NCBI GenBank assembly: GCA_023398815.1
Contig: JAEWRW010000028.1
Coordinates: 139,102 to 203,101 of the forward strand
DNA length: 64,000 bases
Direction: 5' to 3'
Source of the DNA: Bacillota bacterium
Lineage (GTDB): Bacteria > Bacillota > Clostridia > Christensenellales > UMGS416
Numbering within the stretch: position 1 is the first letter of the stretch; the number at the start of each line of letters is the position of its first letter. Below are positions 25,479-32,277 of the stretch, one piece after another. Both the position numbers and the translations under genes were made by a program. Below the pieces are notes generated by a model. The model had not been told where the DNA came from. It saw nothing but the letters and a program-made list of their open reading frames with translations, and made no database searches.

Positions 25479-26639
25479 TCAGCTCCTACCCGCCGGCTGC
25501 TTTTTCAGGAAGCCGCGCTTGGCCTCCATGGCCTTGGCGGGGCAAAGCTCCTGGCAGCAGAAGCAGCGGATACAGGCGTCGTAGTGGATGACGGGCCGGC
25601 GCTCCACCATGGTGATGGCGTGGGGCGGGCAGGCGCGATCGCACTCGCCACAACCCACACAACGGCTGGCATCCAGCACCGGATGGGGATGCAGGGCATC
25701 GACCCAGGTGCGGGGCAGCACATTCTCCAGGTGCCGCACGATCTGGAGGGTGGAGGTCGGCGGCTGGAACGGCCGTTTGTCGTTCTTCATGAGGTCGGCC
25801 ACCGGCGTGCCGACGACCTCAATGTCCTCGAGCTTGGCGGGAAGCAGGCCCCGCTCCCGCGCTAGCGTCAGCAGCAGCACGTCGCTCTGCTTCCAGCCCA
25901 TCAGTTGCACGGCGACGGCATCCAGAGCATAGGGCGAGGCGCTGGCCAGCAGGGCACCGCGTTTACGGGGCGAGCCGGCAGAGGGGCCAGGGCCCTCCAT
26001 CCCCACAATGGCATCCATGACGCTCAAGGCCGGACGCACGGTCTCCGCAATGTCCAGCAGGAAATGGTTGAAGGCCTTGGGCGTGCTGTAGATGGCGTGG
26101 TATTTGGCCTTATCCAGGCCGTAGATGGTACCGTACAGGTTCTTCACCGCGCCCGTCATGGTGCACAGGGCGTGGGTCTTCATCTTGCACAGGTCGATGA
26201 GAACATCGGCCTCCAGCATTTCGGAGACGAGGTCAAAGCTCTTGGCCGAGACACCGTTTGGCACGGGCCTGGTCACCTTGTTGTGGTTGATGACGATTTC
26301 CGCACCCTCCCGGTCAGCCGCGGCCTGAAAGCCACAGACGCGGTAAGCGCGCGCGATTTCCTCACCAAAAAGCCCGGGGCCGCCGGGGCAATCCCCCACC
26401 AGCACGCGGGCAGCACCAGCCTCCCGCGCCAGGCGGATGAAGGCGGCCACGACCTCCGGGTGGGTCGTCTTGGCGTCGCCGGGCGGCGCTTTGACCAACA
26501 TATTTGGCTTGAGGTACACGGTCATGCCGGGCTTGACAAACCGGGACATGCCCCCTAACTCCTCCATCACCCGCCGGGCGGCGTCCAGCACGACAGCGGG
26601 CTCGTAATTGTTGCAGGTTGTCAATGACACTTGCGACAT
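25479..26639 (-). CDS. DUF362 domain protein with C-terminal 2x[4Fe-4S] ferredoxin domain
   Basis: 386 aa: VKPGMTVYLKPNMLV...HPEVVAAFIRLA..., with C-terminal CVGCGECDRACP and CIRCFCCQELCP motifs. Confidence 0.75.
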   Translation of the reverse strand: MSQVSLTTCNNYEPAVVLDAARRVMEELGGMSRFVKPGMTVYLKPNMLVKAPPGDAKTTHPEVVAAFIRLAREAGAARVLVGDCPGGPGLFGEEIARAYRVCGFQAAADREGAEIVINHNKVTRPVPNGVSAKSFDLVSEMLEADVLIDLCKMKTHALCTMTGAVKNLYGTIYGLDKAKYHAIYSTPKAFNHFLLDIAETVRPALSVMDAIVGMEGPGPSAGSPRKRGALLASASPYALDAVAVQLMGWKQSDVLLLTLARERGLLPAKLEDIEVVGTPVADLMKNDKRPFQPPTSTLQIVRHLENVLPRTWVDALHPHPVLDASRCVGCGECDRACPPHAITMVERRPVIHYDACIRCFCCQELCPAKAMEAKRGFLKKQPAGRS

Positions 26640-26660: not shown

Positions 26661-27836
26661 TTACAGAGTGGACAGGAACTGTTCCAGGCGTTGGAGAGCC
26701 GTCTTCAGCTTCTCCACCGAGTAGGCGTAGCTGATGCGGACATGCCCTTCGCCCGAGGGACCAAAGGCCGTACCCGGCACCACCGCGACCTTGGCTTCGT
26801 ACAGCAGCCGCTCGCAGAACTGCTCACTGGTCATGCCGTAGCGCTTGACGGATGGGAACACATAGAACGCGCCTTTGGGCTCAAAGCACTCCATCCCCAT
26901 GGCGTGCAGTGACTGCAGCATGAAACGCCGGCGGCGGTTGTACTCCCGCTGCATCACGCCCACGTCGGCAAAGCCGTCGTTAAAGCCCTGGCGCAAGCCC
27001 TCTAGCGCGGCCTCCTGCGCCAACACCGGGGCACAGAGCGTAGTGTACTGGTGGATCTTCACCATGCCGGCGAGCGCCTCCACCGGGCCGCAGACATAGC
27101 CCAGGCGCCAACCCGTCATGGCAAAGGCTTTGGAGAACCCGCTCAATACTATGGTGCGCTCCTGCATACCTGGGAGCTCAGCGATGGAAACGTGGCGCTG
27201 CCCTGTGTAGGTCAGCTCCGCATAGATCTCATCGGAAATGACGGCAAGGTTGGTGGGGCGCAGCACTTCGGCCAGCGCCTCCAGATGTTCGCGCTCCATC
27301 ACGCCACCGGTGGGGTTGTTGGGGTACGGCAGCAGAATGGCCCGCGTGCGGGGGGTAATGGCCGCCCGCACGGCGTTGGGCTCCACCCGGAACTCCACCT
27401 CAGCACTCGTCTTGATTCCCACGGGCACGCCGCCGCACAGCGTCACACAAGGCGCATAGGAGACATAGGACGGCTCAGGGATGAGCACCTCGTCGCCCGG
27501 CTCCAGCAGTGTCCGCAGGGTGATGTCGATGCCCTCGCTGCCGCCCACGGTCACCAAAACCTGGTTGCGGGGGTTGTAGGCCAAACCGAAGCGCTTTTGC
27601 ATGTACTCGGCGATGGCCACACGCAATTCCAGCGTGCCCCAGTTGGAGGTGTAGTGCGTCGCACCGTGTTCCAGCGCCCAGATGCCAGCCTCCCGGATGT
27701 TCCAAGGCGTGTCAAAGTCCGGCTCACCCACGCCCAAGGAGATGGCCCCCTCAATCTCCGACACAACGTCAAAGAACTTGCGGATGCCCGAGGGCGGCAG
27801 GTCGCCGACGACCTGATTGACCCATTGAATGCTCAC
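26661..27836 (-). CDS. pyridoxal-phosphate-dependent aminotransferase, class I/II
   Basis: 391 aa: PPSGIRKFFDV...LGVGEPDFDTP...YPNNPTGGVM...SGFSKAFAMTGWRLGY (PLP lysine motif). It has a 4-nt overlap with the upstream AsnC gene. Confidence 0.88.
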   Translation of the reverse strand: MSIQWVNQVVGDLPPSGIRKFFDVVSEIEGAISLGVGEPDFDTPWNIREAGIWALEHGATHYTSNWGTLELRVAIAEYMQKRFGLAYNPRNQVLVTVGGSEGIDITLRTLLEPGDEVLIPEPSYVSYAPCVTLCGGVPVGIKTSAEVEFRVEPNAVRAAITPRTRAILLPYPNNPTGGVMEREHLEALAEVLRPTNLAVISDEIYAELTYTGQRHVSIAELPGMQERTIVLSGFSKAFAMTGWRLGYVCGPVEALAGMVKIHQYTTLCAPVLAQEAALEGLRQGFNDGFADVGVMQREYNRRRRFMLQSLHAMGMECFEPKGAFYVFPSVKRYGMTSEQFCERLLYEAKVAVVPGTAFGPSGEGHVRISYAYSVEKLKTALQRLEQFLSTL

Positions 27837-28324
27837 GGCGACACCACCAATCTGTCGTCAACACGCTCCTCGTCGTCCACGATGACGCCGTTTTCCTTAT
27901 ACTTCTTCAGCACAAAATGGGTGGCGGTGGAGAGCACCCCTTCGATGGTGGAGAGCTTCTCCGCCACGAAGAAGGCAATCTCCCGCATGGAGCGGCCGTC
28001 GACCAAAACCATGAGGTCGTAGGCCCCAGACATGAGGTACACCGAGTGCACCTCCGGGAAGCCGTAGATGCGCCGGGCAATGTCGTCAAAGCCCTTGCCA
28101 CGCTGGGGCGTCACCTTCACCTCGATGAGGGCCTCAACCGTCTCGTCGCCGACCTTCTGCCAGTCGATGATGGTGTTGTACTGCACGATGACGCGGTCAC
28201 GCTCCATCTCCGCGATGGCCTGCTGAACCTCCGCCAGCGACGCGCCCACCATGACAGCAATGTCTTCGGCGCTCGCTCGGGCGTCCCTACCCAAAATCTC
28301 GAGGATCTCTTTCTTCAGCTCCAT
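27833..28324 (-). CDS. Lrp/AsnC family transcriptional regulator
   Basis: ORF 27833..28390. The start is at 28324 (MELKKEILEILGRDARASAEDIAVMVG), after AAGGGAG. It has an HTH plus a RAM/AsnC_trans_reg C-terminal domain. Confidence 0.85.
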   Translation of the reverse strand: MELKKEILEILGRDARASAEDIAVMVGASLAEVQQAIAEMERDRVIVQYNTIIDWQKVGDETVEALIEVKVTPQRGKGFDDIARRIYGFPEVHSVYLMSGAYDLMVLVDGRSMREIAFFVAEKLSTIEGVLSTATHFVLKKYKENGVIVDDEERVDDRLVVSP

Positions 28325-28436: not shown

Positions 28437-28465
28437 TTCATTTCAACACCAGTTTGTGCTATACT
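28437..28465 (+). promoter_or_regulatory. extended -10 promoter of the NifU-like/GGGtGRT pair
   Basis: TTCATT (28437-28442), a 17-nt spacer ending TGTGC, and TATACT (28460-28465), which gives TGC-TATACT as an extended -10 element. It lies 45 nt upstream of the ATG at 28510. Confidence 0.55.
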
Positions 28466-28509
28466 ATCTTGGATTTTGTTTTGCCGACAACACAAAAGGA
28501 GGAACTCCC

Positions 28510-29202
28510 ATGGAATATTCAAGAGAAGTGGAAGAAATGGTGTGTGTCGCCAAGGGCCCGCACCATGGCCCGGCGGCCATTCCTGAGGAAGGCAAGTGGG
28601 TCAAGTCCTATGAAATCAAGGACATTTCCGGCTTCACCCACGGCGTGGGCTGGTGCGCCCCGCAGCAGGGTGCCTGCAAGCTCTCCCTCAACGTCAAGGA
28701 CGGCGTCATCCAGGAAGCACTGGTGGAGACGATCGGCTGCAGCGGCATGACCCACTCGGCCGCCATGGCCGCTGAGATTCTGCCCGGCAAGACCGTGCTG
28801 GAGGCCCTGAACACCGACCTGGTGTGTGACGCCATTAACACCGCCATGCGCGAGCTCTTCCTGCAGATCGCCTATGGCCGCACCCAGTCGGCCTTCTCCG
28901 AGGGTGGCCTGCCCATTGGCGCGGGCCTCGAAGACCTGGGCAAGGGCCTGCGCAGCCAGATCGGCACGATGTATGGCACCAAGGCCAAGGGTGTCCGCTT
29001 CATGGAAATGGCCGAGGGTTACGTGCTGGAGATGGGTCTCGATGAAAACAACGAGGTCATCGGCTACAAGTTCGTGAGCCTTGGCAAGATGCTGGAAGCC
29101 ATCCGCAAGGGTGTGGACCCCAAGGAAGCCTTTGAAAAGAACGTGGGCACCTATGGCCGCTTCGCTGAAGCCGTCAAGAAGATTGACCCGCGGCACAACT
29201 GA
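28510..29202 (+). CDS. IscU/NifU-N-like scaffold-type protein with about 110-aa C-terminal extension
   Basis: ORF 28456..29202. The start is at 28510, after AAGGAGG: MEYSREVEEMVCVAKGPHHG...WCAPQQGACKLSLNVKDGVIQEALVETIGCSGMTHSAAMAAEILPGKTVLEAL. This has an IscU-like layout with conserved Cys positions. The C-terminal half was not recognised. Confidence 0.65.
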   Translation: MEYSREVEEMVCVAKGPHHGPAAIPEEGKWVKSYEIKDISGFTHGVGWCAPQQGACKLSLNVKDGVIQEALVETIGCSGMTHSAAMAAEILPGKTVLEALNTDLVCDAINTAMRELFLQIAYGRTQSAFSEGGLPIGAGLEDLGKGLRSQIGTMYGTKAKGVRFMEMAEGYVLEMGLDENNEVIGYKFVSLGKMLEAIRKGVDPKEAFEKNVGTYGRFAEAVKKIDPRHN

Positions 29203-29216
29203 GGAGGGAACGCGAT

Positions 29217-30215
29217 ATGGCGCAGTTTGAGAGCTACGAGAGAAGAATCAAGCAGATTGAGAAGTGCATGGCCGAATACGGCATTCCCTCCCTGGACGAA
29301 GCGAAGGAATACTGCCTGAATAAGGGCGTGGACGTGGAGAAGATCGTCCGCGGCATCCAGATGATCGCCTTCGAGAACGCGGTGTGGGCCTACACGCTGG
29401 GCGCGCGCATCGCCTTTGCCAAGGGTTGCACCACCGCTGCCGAGGCCGCTGAAGCCATCGGCGTGGGCCTGCAGGCCTTCTGCATCCCCGGGTCGGTGGC
29501 GGATAGCCGCCAGGTCGGCCTGGGCCACGGCAACCTGGCCGCCATGCTCCTGCGGGAGGAGACCAAGTGCTTCTGCTTCCTGGCCGGGCACGAGTCCTTC
29601 GCCGCCGCGGAAGGTGCCATCGGCATCGCCCGCACGGCCAACAAGGTGCGCAAGGATCCCCTGCAGGTCGTCCTCAATGGCCTGGGCAAGGACGCCGCCT
29701 ACATCATCAGCCGCATCAACGGCTTCACCTATGTGAAGACCGACTATAACTACTACACCGGCGAGCTGAAGATTGCTGAAGTGAAGCCCTTCAGCGACGG
29801 TGAGAAGGCCAAGGTGCGCGTCTACGGCGCGGACGACGTGAGCGAAGGTGTGGCCATCATGATCCATGAGAAAGTGGACGTATCCATCACCGGCAACTCC
29901 ACCAACCCCACCCGCTTCCAGCACCCGGTCGCCGGCACCTACAAGAAGTGGTCGGTGGACAACGGCAAGAAGTTCTTCTCGGTGGCGTCTGGCGGCGGCA
30001 CGGGCCGTACCCTGCACCCCGACAACATGGCCGCCGGCCCTGCCTCCTACGGCATGACCGACACCATGGGCCGCATGCACAGCGACGCTCAGTTCGCCGG
30101 TTCCTCCTCGGTGCCGGCCCACGTGGAGATGATGGGTCTCATCGGCATGGGCAACAACCCCATGGTCGGTGCGTCCGTCGCCGTGGCCGTGGCCATTGAG
30201 GAAGCTGGGAAGTAA
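29217..30215 (+). CDS. GGGtGRT family protein (conserved, function unknown)
   Basis: 332 aa. The literal motif G-G-G-T-G-R-T is encoded at 29991-30011 (SVASGGGTGRTLHPDN). The size matches the roughly 330-aa family named after this motif. The RBS GAGGAGGG overlaps the stop of the upstream gene. Confidence 0.8.
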   Translation: MAQFESYERRIKQIEKCMAEYGIPSLDEAKEYCLNKGVDVEKIVRGIQMIAFENAVWAYTLGARIAFAKGCTTAAEAAEAIGVGLQAFCIPGSVADSRQVGLGHGNLAAMLLREETKCFCFLAGHESFAAAEGAIGIARTANKVRKDPLQVVLNGLGKDAAYIISRINGFTYVKTDYNYYTGELKIAEVKPFSDGEKAKVRVYGADDVSEGVAIMIHEKVDVSITGNSTNPTRFQHPVAGTYKKWSVDNGKKFFSVASGGGTGRTLHPDNMAAGPASYGMTDTMGRMHSDAQFAGSSSVPAHVEMMGLIGMGNNPMVGASVAVAVAIEEAGK

Positions 30216-30240
30216 GACCCCGCCAATCCACAAGTACAAG

Positions 30241-30274
30241 AAACTCCGCCGGCAACTGTGCCGGCGGAGTTTTC
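30241..30274. terminator. bidirectional terminator between GGGtGRT gene and convergent lipoprotein gene
   Basis: AAACTCCGCCGGCA-ACTG-TGCCGGCGGAGTTT is a perfect 14-bp stem, followed by TCGTTTGG. Confidence 0.8.
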
Positions 30275-30322
30275 GTTTGGTTCTACTGTGTTGCGTATTT
30301 CAGAAGCGCCGTCGCCCGTTCG

Positions 30323-31012
30323 TTATTGATCCTCGTCCTTGCCCACCACCACGGTGTAGTTGACGGTATCCTCCTGCAGGGAGTCGGCGATGTACACCGA
30401 GATGTCTCGTCCATCAAACGTGGCGCGCAGCAGCACCATGCCTGCCTTCTTCTCCTGCCGGAAGCTGTCGCCATCCAGCAGGATGTCCTGATAAGCGGCC
30501 ACCACATCCTGCACGGTGGTGTCGAGCACATAGCCGGAGACGACCAGCACATCGCCCAAGTTGGCGGTGGCTGTCAGGGTGAACCCCTCCATCAGGGGCA
30601 GAAGATCGGAGGGGTACTCGTCGGGCAACACGGCCTTCTCACCGGTGGCCACCACCGCACCGTCGTCGGAGCGATACTCGCTCCCCTTTCCCTCGGTCTC
30701 CAGCACACGGCGCTCGCCGTCGCCATCCACAATCTCAATGCGATCCCCGCGAACCTCTACCGTGCTGTCGCCCTGCTCAATGTCGAGCCCCTCGCTCGTC
30801 AGCGAAAGACCTCCGCTGGGATAGGTGATCTGCAGACCGTCCTTGTCGAGCGATACGCTGGTGAAATGGCCGTCCAGCAGGAATCCGCTCTTATCAATGC
30901 GCACGATGTCCTGTCCGTCATCCTGGATATGGATGCCATTCTCCAACACCGAGCAGCCGGCAAGCATTGCGGCCAGCAGGAAGGCAACCCCCAACACACG
31001 CAGGCGGTTCAT
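30323..31012 (-). CDS. putative lipoprotein of unknown function
   Basis: ORF 30323..31066. The start is at 31012: MNRLRVLGVAFLLAAMLAGCSVLENG (lipobox LAGC). Its ATG overlaps the TGA of the upstream dehydrogenase (ATGA). Confidence 0.6.
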   Translation of the reverse strand: MNRLRVLGVAFLLAAMLAGCSVLENGIHIQDDGQDIVRIDKSGFLLDGHFTSVSLDKDGLQITYPSGGLSLTSEGLDIEQGDSTVEVRGDRIEIVDGDGERRVLETEGKGSEYRSDDGAVVATGEKAVLPDEYPSDLLPLMEGFTLTATANLGDVLVVSGYVLDTTVQDVVAAYQDILLDGDSFRQEKKAGMVLLRATFDGRDISVYIADSLQEDTVNYTVVVGKDEDQ

Positions 31013-32277
31013 CCGGCCAGCTTCTTTCCGTTGGCCAGCAGGTATTGCTCGGCCGCCGGGCACCACAGGCCACCGGCTGCCTCCACAATACGGGCCAACT
31101 CAACAAAGAGCGGGTCGCTCTTCCCCTTGTGAGCAAAATCATCAATGGCGGTCAGCTCCATCTCCAGCTGGGTGTAGATGAGCTTCTTGCCGCCGGAGAT
31201 CTTCGGCAGGTTGAGCGTCGTCTCGGGCACGCAATTGAGCCCGCCGACATGGGTGATCATCGACGACGGGTTGATGCGGCCGTCGGCCATCATGGCCAGA
31301 CTCTCAATCATATCCGCGGTGTTGCCGCCAGAGGTGCCCACCACATGGGTGGAGTTGTAATGCACGTTGTAGAAGTTGAACGTTGCCGAGAGTTTCGGAT
31401 CCGACGGGCCAGCAAAGAAGTTGAGGCAACCGTCGCGCCCCAGGATGGCATCGCCCTGCTCAATGACCGGGCGCACCGGCGCGAACACCAGCACATCGTC
31501 GTATCCCTTCCCGCCATTGAGGCCAAGGAGCGTGGCCACCGCGTCGCCGCTGCCGGTGTTGCAGTAAACGAGCTTCACGCCGTGAGCCGCGGCCTCCTCC
31601 ACCGTGTAGATGGACTGGGCACGATGGAGCCGCGCGTCGTCGATGTCGGTGACGACCAACAGGCCCGGCTTGCGGTCGCAATGGATGGCATAGTCGATGG
31701 CGCCCATGCCCATGGGGCCAGCCCCGGCGAGGATCGCCATACTGCCGCCGGGCACAATGCCCATGTGGTGGTCGTAGCTGCCGTTCACCGTGTGGTACAT
31801 GGCGTGGAAAGTGCCTACGATGCAGCTCATGGGCTCAGCCAGGGAGCCGAAGTAGTAGGCCTCACCGTTGTAATCGAGCAGGCAATTCTGCTCCATCACC
31901 TCGTTGGGGATGACGATGTGGGTGGCGTCGCCGCCAATGTAGCGGTAGGAATAGCCCGGCGCGGCCAACGAACCCTTATAGTTGAGGGCCGGCTGGATGG
32001 CAAACTTGCTGTCCTCGCGGTAGCGGCCCTGCCACTTGCTGCCGACCTTCAGGAGCCTACCGCAGAACTCATGACCGATGATGACCGGGTACTCGGCGAT
32101 GTCGTCGGGCACACGCTTGTGGGCACTGCCCTGCTCGGCGGCCTTCCAGCTGGACATGCAGATGCTGTCAGAGACAATCTCCGCCAGAATTTCATCCTCG
32201 CCAATCTCCGGCAGGGGGAATTCCTCCAGCCGCAGATCCTCTTTGCCATACATGCGAACGGCCTTGGTCGTAATCAT
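31009..32277 (-). CDS. zinc-binding medium-chain dehydrogenase/reductase, long (422-aa) form
   Basis: MITTKAVRMYGKEDLRLEEFPLPEIGEDEILAEIVSDSICMS...IIGHEFCG...ILAGAGPMGMGAIDYA (Rossmann motif). It is longer than typical polyol or alcohol MDRs; the size is reminiscent of ketose-phosphate reductases, but this was not verified. Confidence 0.75.
   Translation of the reverse strand: MITTKAVRMYGKEDLRLEEFPLPEIGEDEILAEIVSDSICMSSWKAAEQGSAHKRVPDDIAEYPVIIGHEFCGRLLKVGSKWQGRYREDSKFAIQPALNYKGSLAAPGYSYRYIGGDATHIVIPNEVMEQNCLLDYNGEAYYFGSLAEPMSCIVGTFHAMYHTVNGSYDHHMGIVPGGSMAILAGAGPMGMGAIDYAIHCDRKPGLLVVTDIDDARLHRAQSIYTVEEAAAHGVKLVYCNTGSGDAVATLLGLNGGKGYDDVLVFAPVRPVIEQGDAILGRDGCLNFFAGPSDPKLSATFNFYNVHYNSTHVVGTSGGNTADMIESLAMMADGRINPSSMITHVGGLNCVPETTLNLPKISGGKKLIYTQLEMELTAIDDFAHKGKSDPLFVELARIVEAAGGLWCPAAEQYLLANGKKLAG

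Follow-up and report, generated by a model that had tools for sequence, protein, structure and literature searches.

Strict pairing of an IscU-fold protein with a GGGtGRT protein in anaerobes, and a possible role as a two-subunit metalloenzyme

What do an apparent iron-sulfur (Fe-S) scaffold and a GGGtGRT protein do together? The question was raised by a 64,000-nucleotide (nt) stretch of DNA, hereafter the window, from a Bacillota bacterium (Clostridia; Christensenellales; UMGS416), which corresponds to positions 139,102 to 203,101 of contig JAEWRW010000028.1. Within the window, a plus-strand unit was found to consist of gene 1 (28510..29202; ATG at 28510, TGA at 29200-29202), encoding a NifU/IscU-like protein of 230 amino acids (aa), and gene 2 (29217..30215), encoding a GGGtGRT protein of 332 aa that is a full-length match to the Pfam family PF14057. 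A first-pass annotation, made by a model that read the sequence without database searches, had proposed that the unit joins an Fe-S or metal-handling protein to an uncharacterized enzyme-sized partner. In the current study we too favour a view in which a protein that handles metal or an Fe-S cluster is firmly tied to a partner of enzyme size. More specifically, the pair may act as a metalloenzyme with two obligate subunits in the central carbon metabolism of anaerobes, a tentative reading to which we assign a probability of roughly 40%. The evidence that carries this reading is how strictly the genes are paired, how strongly both are selected, the nature of the gene 1 protein, and a mobile version of the pair that travels with phosphoglycerate mutases.

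Pairing and conservation of the two genes

A genome scan with gene 2 recovered more than 587 relatives, and the best 80 loci were analysed (set 1). A second scan, using a Bacteroides-type seed, supplied 80 further loci (set 2), for a total of 160 main-clade loci. Set 1 covered Clostridia, Akkermansia and other Verrucomicrobiota, Planctomycetota, Elusimicrobiota, Melainabacteria, Spirochaetota, and Bacteroidaceae; set 2 covered Bacteroides, Phocaeicola, Prevotella/Segatella, Alistipes, Muribaculaceae, Paludibacteraceae, Treponema, and Acidaminococcaceae. In set 1, a full-length homologue of gene 1 (72-91% identical) was located directly upstream of gene 2, on the same strand, at 80 of 80 loci. 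In set 2, the gene 1 homologue was adjacent at 76 loci and separated by a 492-nt gap at one, and the remaining three loci had no upstream DNA. When both sets were combined, gene 1 was upstream of gene 2 on the same strand at all 157 testable loci, which come from about ten phyla. The pairing, whose conservation the first-pass annotation had left to be surveyed, was also kept in a divergent clade in which the GGGtGRT protein is 51% identical to that of the window.

Beyond the pair itself, clustering of the open reading frames (ORFs) flanking the 160 loci yielded no third conserved gene; the best other neighbour families occurred at 7 of 80 loci in set 1 and 13 of 80 in set 2, and reflect local synteny. 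Moreover, motifs typical of cysteine desulfurases (SGSAC, GHHC[AT], and S.HK..[GA]P, an approximate motif test) were found in none of the 739 ORFs flanking 80 of the loci. The first-pass annotation had also taken the neighbouring AsnC regulator/aminotransferase operon as a hint of amino-acid-linked control of the pair. A direct search of 80 loci found no AsnC homologue near the pair, clustering across the full 160 revealed no recurrent regulator, and a relative of the aminotransferase was near the pair at only 2 of the first 80 loci, both from Akkermansiaceae. A linkage of the pair to AsnC or the aminotransferase was therefore rejected, with 0 AsnC genes in the 160 main-clade loci by search plus clustering. 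In the two Akkermansiaceae loci (L048:9572-10633 and L056:8547-9608), a homologue of the window aminotransferase (41-42% identity) lies 1.5-2.6 kb downstream of the pair. This recurrence is probably a coincidence; it concerns the sole window neighbour that recurs, besides one case in L001 given below.

Conservation of both proteins was then assessed with 78 sequences from many phyla. Pairwise identity had a median of 75% and a minimum of 64% for gene 1, and a median of 80% and a minimum of 72% for gene 2, which was 68-97% identical to family members from many phyla. For the same genome pairs, neighbouring genes gave identities of 39% (TyrRS), 60% (GlnRS), 60% (pyruvate kinase), and about 70% (SecA). 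Pairwise distances of gene 1 and gene 2 were correlated (r = 0.72). Recent horizontal transfer was considered as the source of the high identity and was rejected, because the G+C content at third codon positions (GC3) of the pair, ranging from 0.16 to 0.90, tracked the flanking G+C content (r = 0.95, 72 loci). Given that GC3 matches the host, the identity reflects strong purifying selection instead, and this selection is stronger than that on tRNA synthetases or SecA. Uniformity of the family was also seen in a protein library of representatives at 50% identity, drawn from about 15 billion proteins: among the best 150 matches, the only intact full-length representatives were P0122 and P0150, the others being fragments or chimeras. 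Among the 47 ORFs of the window, the effective number of codons was lowest for gene 2 (30.5), which also had the highest GC3 (0.88); this codon bias, the strongest in the window, fits high expression.

Natural fusions of gene 1 and gene 2 were considered as evidence of interaction and were rejected, all long matches (P0121, P0130, P0146, P0189, P0271, P0007, and P0034) being chimeras or tandem duplications. Exact internal tandem duplications of 50-160 residues were present in P0271, P0007, P0034, and P0121, and P0130, P0146, and P0189 are chimeras with unrelated N-termini. Long entries of both families are thus most likely assembly or gene-calling artefacts, not true fusions. A separate observation concerned P0492, a main-clade GGGtGRT protein labelled as coming from a metagenome-assembled genome of Methanobacteriaceae; the family may extend to gut archaea, or this bin may be contaminated.

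The divergent clade comprises P0150, which is the 51%-identical relative of gene 2 mentioned above, and about 18 related clusters that are 63-79% identical to P0150. In this clade the pair was embedded in a cassette with the order HTH_3 regulator, ApgM-type mutase, NifU-like protein, GGGtGRT protein, an orphan protein (~320 aa, hydrophobic at its N-terminus), and a His_Phos_1 member of the dPGM/phosphatase superfamily. The ApgM protein is a 2,3-bisphosphoglycerate-independent phosphoglycerate mutase, with scores of 517 bits against NF003104 (cut-off 489) and 431 bits against TIGR00306 (cut-off 320). The cassette was found in every divergent-clade context with enough flanking DNA (L083, L167-169, L172, L174, and L176), and the loci recorded were L083:2046-8580, L167:4006-9606, L172:391-7412, L174:301-5405, L176:842-6141, and L178-L181. 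The association persisted through rearrangements: L172 is rearranged and has an extra GpmI-type mutase, and L176 has an extra HAD phosphatase. The ApgM orthologues were mutually 72-85% identical and therefore diverged together with the pair. One version of the cassette was 100% identical in three genomes, occurred twice in one genome, and stood beside transposase, SSB-like, and YodL-type genes; the divergent cassette is mobile-element cargo. An anti-phage defence role was rejected after PADLOC defence-system models gave 0 matches for the nine proteins of L167. A scan of genome contigs with P0150 returned only a spurious RmuC match and was set aside.

The two proteins

Gene 1 was described in the first-pass annotation as having an IscU-like core followed by an unrecognized C-terminal half of about 110 aa. 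The question of what gene 1 is bears directly on the main rival to our reading, according to which the pair is a dedicated Fe-S biogenesis, carrier, or repair system, with gene 1 as a true IscU-type scaffold and the GGGtGRT protein as a new accessory factor that would donate iron or sulfide, act as a chaperone, or promote release. We consider this rival unlikely, and the comparison of gene 1 with IscU provides evidence on both sides. Public annotation names such proteins "iron-sulfur cluster assembly scaffold protein", and the IscU fold of residues ~40-122 (28627..28875, plus strand), which hold four invariant cysteines, was supported by hhalign, by a phmmer search of the PDB, and by an AlphaFold2 (AF2) model compared with Foldseek. 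The phmmer search matched gene 1 to A. fulgidus IscU. The AF2 model was of moderate confidence (predicted local distance difference test, pLDDT, of 65), and its top 13 Foldseek matches in the PDB were all IscU (probability 0.84-0.99, target TM score about 0.5). In hhalign, with an E. coli IscU sequence that was entered by hand, the probability was 87.5 and residues 56-104 of gene 1 aligned with IscU residues 41-93. In that alignment C77 of gene 1 corresponds to IscU Cys63, and by local context C106 corresponds to IscU Cys106, which gives candidate equivalents for two of the three E. coli cluster ligands (Cys37, Cys63, and Cys106); a similar GC..A....E...GK..-EAL helix is also present.

The same comparison separates gene 1 from the scaffolds. 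Against the equivalog models, gene 1 scored 25.4 bits with NifU_clost (cut-off 187.9) and 21.4 bits with IscU (cut-off 192.4), the scaffold models being TIGR01999 and TIGR03419, and 19.1 bits with SufU, TIGR01994 (cut-off 92.5); it remained just under the Pfam cut-off for NifU_N, PF01592 (20-21 bits versus 22). No cysteine of gene 1 aligns with IscU Cys37 in this comparison; C49 and C56 flank that position and replace the Cys37/Asp39 positions of IscU. Moreover, the His105/LPPVK segment of IscU (about 11 residues) was not found in gene 1, where NTDL is followed by two residues and then C106, with Val at position 105. Gene 1 thus lacks the features of a labile site (Asp39, His105, and the LPPVK chaperone motif). 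C49, C56, C77, and C106 were invariant, even in the most divergent clade, and a fourth invariant cysteine suggests a site that is not labile. Gene 1 thus has the IscU fold and is not an ordinary assembly scaffold, and its identity as a bona fide IscU is unsupported, because it scores below the family thresholds and the His105/LPPVK segment is missing; the core seen in the first pass stands as a fold but not as family membership. Gene 1 also differs from IscU/NifU in context, always being beside a GGGtGRT gene and never, by the motif test at 80 loci, beside a cysteine desulfurase. SufU, the zinc-dependent sulfur-transfer partner of SufS, has the IscU fold with a permanent metal, so the fold can serve roles other than that of a scaffold. 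Gene 1 is not supported as a SufU either, given its score and the lack of a SufS neighbour by the motif test.

IscU is further distinguished from gene 1 by the extra orphan C-terminal domain of about 105 aa (residues ~125-230; 28882..29199, plus strand). As the first pass had it, this half is unrecognized: residues ~125-230 matched no Pfam or NCBIfam family at E values up to 10. It was kept full-length at all loci, and residues 171-230 were modelled with pLDDT of about 80-90; Foldseek gave no convincing fold match for the domain.

Gene 2 is an ordinary full-length member of PF14057, from which no difference was seen (E = 4.1e-194; 644.3 bits versus a cut-off of 27; residues 4-330 on profile positions 1-327). 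The literal GGGTGRT motif was confirmed exactly at 29991..30011 (residues 259-265) and was invariant in alignments that included the divergent clade. It lies in the most conserved stretch of the protein, residues 224-319 (29886..30173, plus strand), which contains ITGNST, SGGGTGRTLHPDN, GMTDTxGRMH, FAGSSSVPAHVEM, and GMGNNP and in which almost all columns were invariant even against the 51%-identical clade. From conservation, this stretch is a candidate for the active site. Invariant residues of gene 2 included H104, H125, H267, H288, and H302, together with many Asp, Glu, Arg, Lys, Ser, Thr, and Gly. The Cys/His patches FCIPGS and KCFCFLAGHE, singled out as conserved-looking in the first pass, are present; their cysteines were lost in the 51%-identical clade, and because no cysteine of gene 2 is invariant, a role of these patches as cofactor ligands is unsupported.

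The AF2 model of gene 2 (pLDDT 73, predicted TM score 0.76) showed a helical N-terminal domain (residues 7-112) and an alpha/beta domain (residues 118-225), and residues 227-305, including GGGTGRT, had pLDDT below 50. Because the members of the family differ so little, their alignment carries little information. Homology and structure searches placed gene 2 in no biochemically characterized family, in agreement with the earlier statement that the family has no assigned function. NCBIfam has no model for GGGtGRT; phmmer and profile searches of the PDB gave nothing significant (best E values 4.3 and 0.25), and neither did Foldseek against the PDB (best E 0.011, TM score 0.18). Searches of Pfam and NCBIfam with whole proteins and sub-domains at E values up to 10 revealed no remote homologue for GGGtGRT. 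Scattered Foldseek matches (thymidine phosphorylase, AnPRT, and dehydrogenase helical domains) were not significant, and motif likenesses (tubulin/FtsZ GGGTGxG, DhaK GGGSGHEP, ASKHA GGGT, and pyruvoyl "GSS" cleavage sites) had no alignment or fold support and are not claimed. An ORF of 362 aa runs antisense to gene 2 (29151-30239, minus strand), with similar ORFs at 21 related loci; it results from the conserved, GC3-rich frame of the sense strand and is not a gene.

The operon and its surroundings

Gene 1 and gene 2 form one co-transcribed operon, which sits on the plus strand amid mainly minus-strand ORFs, an orientation correctly noted in the first pass. That annotation also gave the pair its own extended -10 promoter. 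The element is present (TGcTATACT, 28457..28465), but the associated -35 is weak (TTCATT, 28437-28442) and a consensus promoter scan did not call the site; read from the sequence, a promoter upstream of gene 1 at this position is plausible. Among related loci, a -10-like hexamer was found upstream of gene 1 at 68 of 77 and an extended -10 (TGnTAnnnT) at 39 of 77, and by eye the Bacteroidota loci have their own TAnnTTTG-type upstream element. Gene 1 is preceded by the Shine-Dalgarno sequence AAGGAGGA (28496..28503), 7 nt ahead of the ATG. The Shine-Dalgarno sequence of gene 2 (GAGGAGG, 29201..29207) overlaps the TGA stop of gene 1, as previously reported, and because of this overlap it is plausible that translation of gene 2 is coupled to that of gene 1. 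A Shine-Dalgarno-like element was found ahead of gene 2 at 64 of 80 related loci, where the interval between the two gene matches, counted from where the first ends to where the second begins, was mostly 18-45 nt, a measure that overstates the true gap.

Downstream of gene 2, an intrinsic terminator (30240..30283, plus strand) consists of a G+C-rich stem with a 4-nt loop (stem-loop 30240-30273) and a T-rich tail, folding at -33.9 kcal/mol (z-score -4.7). The terminator of the first pass is therefore real, with a stem of 15 bp and not 14; a terminator-like hairpin with a T-run followed gene 2 at 60 of 67 related loci. No Rfam family was found in the leader of the window or in 10 diverse related loci, and across 150 upstream regions inspected by eye no common palindrome was seen and no shared operator or riboswitch. 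In five Akkermansiaceae loci (L047, L048, L049, L056, and L061), a common block, AGATTAGTCTTGCCTAAC ... TAcAAT, was observed about 120 nt upstream of gene 1; the same leaders have a GC-rich hairpin, without an Rfam match, whose arms vary between species in an apparently compensatory manner.

The neighbouring genes lie on the minus strand. An AsnC/Lrp-type regulator (27833-28324) overlaps the start of a class I/II aminotransferase (26661-27836) by 4 nt, and a strong near-consensus sigma-70 promoter (28390-28362; TTGACC-17-TATAAT with TG) appears from its position to serve this operon, divergently from the pair as the first pass had described. Directly downstream of the aminotransferase, a DUF362 protein of 386 aa (25479-26639) with a C-terminal 2x[4Fe-4S] ferredoxin domain may belong to the same operon. 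On the other side, a 247-aa protein (30323-31066) with a signal-peptide or lipoprotein-like N-terminus matched neither Pfam nor NCBIfam, and of the 80 related loci only L001 has a homologue (45% identity).

Function of the pair

Published data were consulted for expression and phenotype. The role of the GGGtGRT protein "remains unclear" in 2025 (PMC12078515), and in the literature searched, up to 2026, no paper assigns it a function. A 2024 study of the chicken gut describes it as poorly characterized, with high in vivo expression by Bacteroides, Megamonas, Megasphaera, Succinatimonas, and Blautia, and also lists NifU as expressed in overlapping taxa (PMC11204068). In the human gut core metaproteome, NifU homologues made up about 1.0% of spectra, comparable to GroEL, and the authors read them as Fe-S assembly (PMC3261163); we infer that these spectra come from the 230-aa gene 1 type. 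In B. thetaiotaomicron, BT0173-BT0174 (GGGtGRT and NifU) dropped 11-13-fold upon iron depletion (PMC10434189), and in C. pasteurianum the neighbours F502_05012 and F502_05017 were 7.1-fold and 3.7-fold up with iron, alongside PFOR and hydrogenase (PMC5395762, Table 2). Both proteins were commoner in the rumen before feeding, in a group that also has PEPCK, PPDK, and GAPDH (PMC7035244). Transposon insertions in BT0173-4 doubled Roc, that is, weakened the glucose-dependent inhibition of Cur; pfkA was recovered in the same screen, and growth of the BT0173-4 mutants on glucose was normal (bioRxiv 10.64898/2026.04.10.717545). The window pair is a typical member of a catalogued family, and its adjacency is already visible in published gene lists (BT0173-74). 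The literature searched does not describe how strict the pairing is, how strong the selection is, that the "NifU" half is not a scaffold, or that a phosphoglycerate-mutase cassette exists.

In the reading that we prefer, gene 1 and gene 2 would encode the two subunits of one obligate, abundant, stoichiometric metalloprotein complex. Gene 1 would be a subunit derived from IscU in which the features of a transient scaffold were lost; its four-Cys site would hold a permanent Fe-S cluster or another metal, possibly zinc. The conserved, Cys-free stretch of gene 2, rich in Gly, Ser, Thr, His, Asp, and Arg, would be the substrate site, and its substrate would probably be an anionic or phosphorylated small molecule. 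Because of the divergent-clade cassette, the most likely substrate area would be the phosphoglycerate node, with 3-phosphoglycerate, 2-phosphoglycerate, phosphoenolpyruvate (PEP), or a close derivative; for a metalloenzyme placed at this node specifically, our confidence is about half of that given above for the broader reading. Weak pointers to phosphoglycerate/PEP metabolism are the cassette, the pfkA-like B. thetaiotaomicron phenotype, and the fact that the pair varies together with PEPCK, PPDK, and GAPDH. The cassette's link of the pair to phosphoglycerate mutases and phosphatases is a real lead but an indirect one. An analogy is offered by L-serine dehydratase alpha/beta, tartrate dehydratase TtdAB, and FumA (versus FumC): oxygen-sensitive, Fe-S-dependent enzymes from small bicistronic operons of anaerobes, which act on hydroxy-acid intermediates and are expressed when iron is plentiful. 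The pair may resemble these two-subunit Fe-S hydro-lyases and iron-dependent isozymes in logic only, no similarity of sequence or fold having been detected.

Several observations weigh against this reading. The hydro-lyases bind their cluster through three Cys ligands with an open iron, whereas gene 1 has four invariant cysteines, which argue against a dehydratase-type cluster; zinc binding, as in SufU, is equally possible. The AF2 model, of low confidence in the key stretch of gene 2, does not support a substrate site. Being mobile cargo, the cassette may follow a logic that differs from that of the chromosomal pair, and at the 160 main-clade loci the surroundings of the pair contained neither phosphoglycerate-mutase-type genes nor other cassette partners. 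Few glycolytic genes (pyruvate kinase, PPi-PFK, and PduL) were neighbours at those loci, and an enrichment was rejected, their counts being close to chance expectation by a rough estimate. Finally, the B. thetaiotaomicron phenotype was only 2-fold in mutants that are normal on glucose.

How does the main rival, Fe-S biogenesis, carriage, or repair, account for the same data? It is in keeping with the lineages in which the pair was sampled, anaerobes of the gut, the rumen, and digesters that should have many Fe-S enzymes, with the interpretation given by the metaproteome authors, and with expression that tracks iron. Since expression of E. coli ISC also drops under iron starvation, the last point does not discriminate between the two. 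Against a biogenesis role, in addition to the failed equivalog thresholds and the altered site of gene 1, stand the absence of desulfurase motifs and of any recurrent neighbour, and a divergent cassette in which the pair is linked with phosphomutases and phosphatases instead of genes for Fe-S biogenesis. Translational coupling, together with an abundance near 1% of the proteome, would suit a stoichiometric complex better than a catalytic maturase, and the B. thetaiotaomicron insertion mutants grow normally (bioRxiv 10.64898/2026.04.10.717545).

It is improbable that the pair is a non-catalytic but abundant buffer of iron, sulfide, or redox state, a store of iron or Fe-S, or a protectant against oxidative stress, with a role like that of rubrerythrin. 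Very high abundance, induction by iron, and dispensability in vitro are what such a protein would show, the pair and rubrerythrins both appear in published lists of proteins that gut anaerobes commonly express (PMC11204068, PMC3261163), and C. pasteurianum rubrerythrin shifts in the same direction (PMC5395762). However, near-invariance over about 100 residues of gene 2, with many His, Asp, Arg, Ser, and Thr among them, is typical of a precise active site and not of a storage protein, the complex has only one small Cys site per 560 residues, and the phosphomutase cassette would be left unexplained. Still more improbable is a metabolic sensor or regulator, a complex that binds Fe-S or a metabolite and signals the state of iron, redox, or glycolysis to Cur and similar regulators: Fe-S proteins are frequently sensors and the insertions affected regulation (Roc/Cur) rather than growth (bioRxiv 10.64898/2026.04.10.717545), but Pfam and NCBIfam searches found no DNA-binding or signalling domain, abundance (PMC3261163) and the window codon statistics are well above those of usual regulators, and the pair is present in phyla without Cur-type regulation.

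Taken together, these data place the pair among the most conserved and, according to published proteomics, the most abundant proteins of anaerobes, including Bacteroides, Prevotella/Segatella, Clostridia, Akkermansia, and Treponema of the gut, the rumen, and other habitats. An obligate pair, a "NifU" half that is not a scaffold, and a mobile variant linked to mutases provide a complex to purify, residues to mutate, and a shortlist of substrates. A bolder version of the metalloenzyme reading, which we regard as rather unlikely, is that the pair is a near-universal, unrecognized core enzyme of anaerobes, with a new fold and an IscU-derived subunit as permanent Fe-S carrier, catalysing an iron-dependent phosphoglycerate/PEP step, unassigned or alternative, of glycolysis or gluconeogenesis. 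If this were true, the "NifU" signal in gut metaproteomes, or part of it, would have been misread as Fe-S assembly since 2009, and metabolic models of the gut as well as readings of "NifU" abundance would need correction for a new iron-dependent enzyme of central metabolism.

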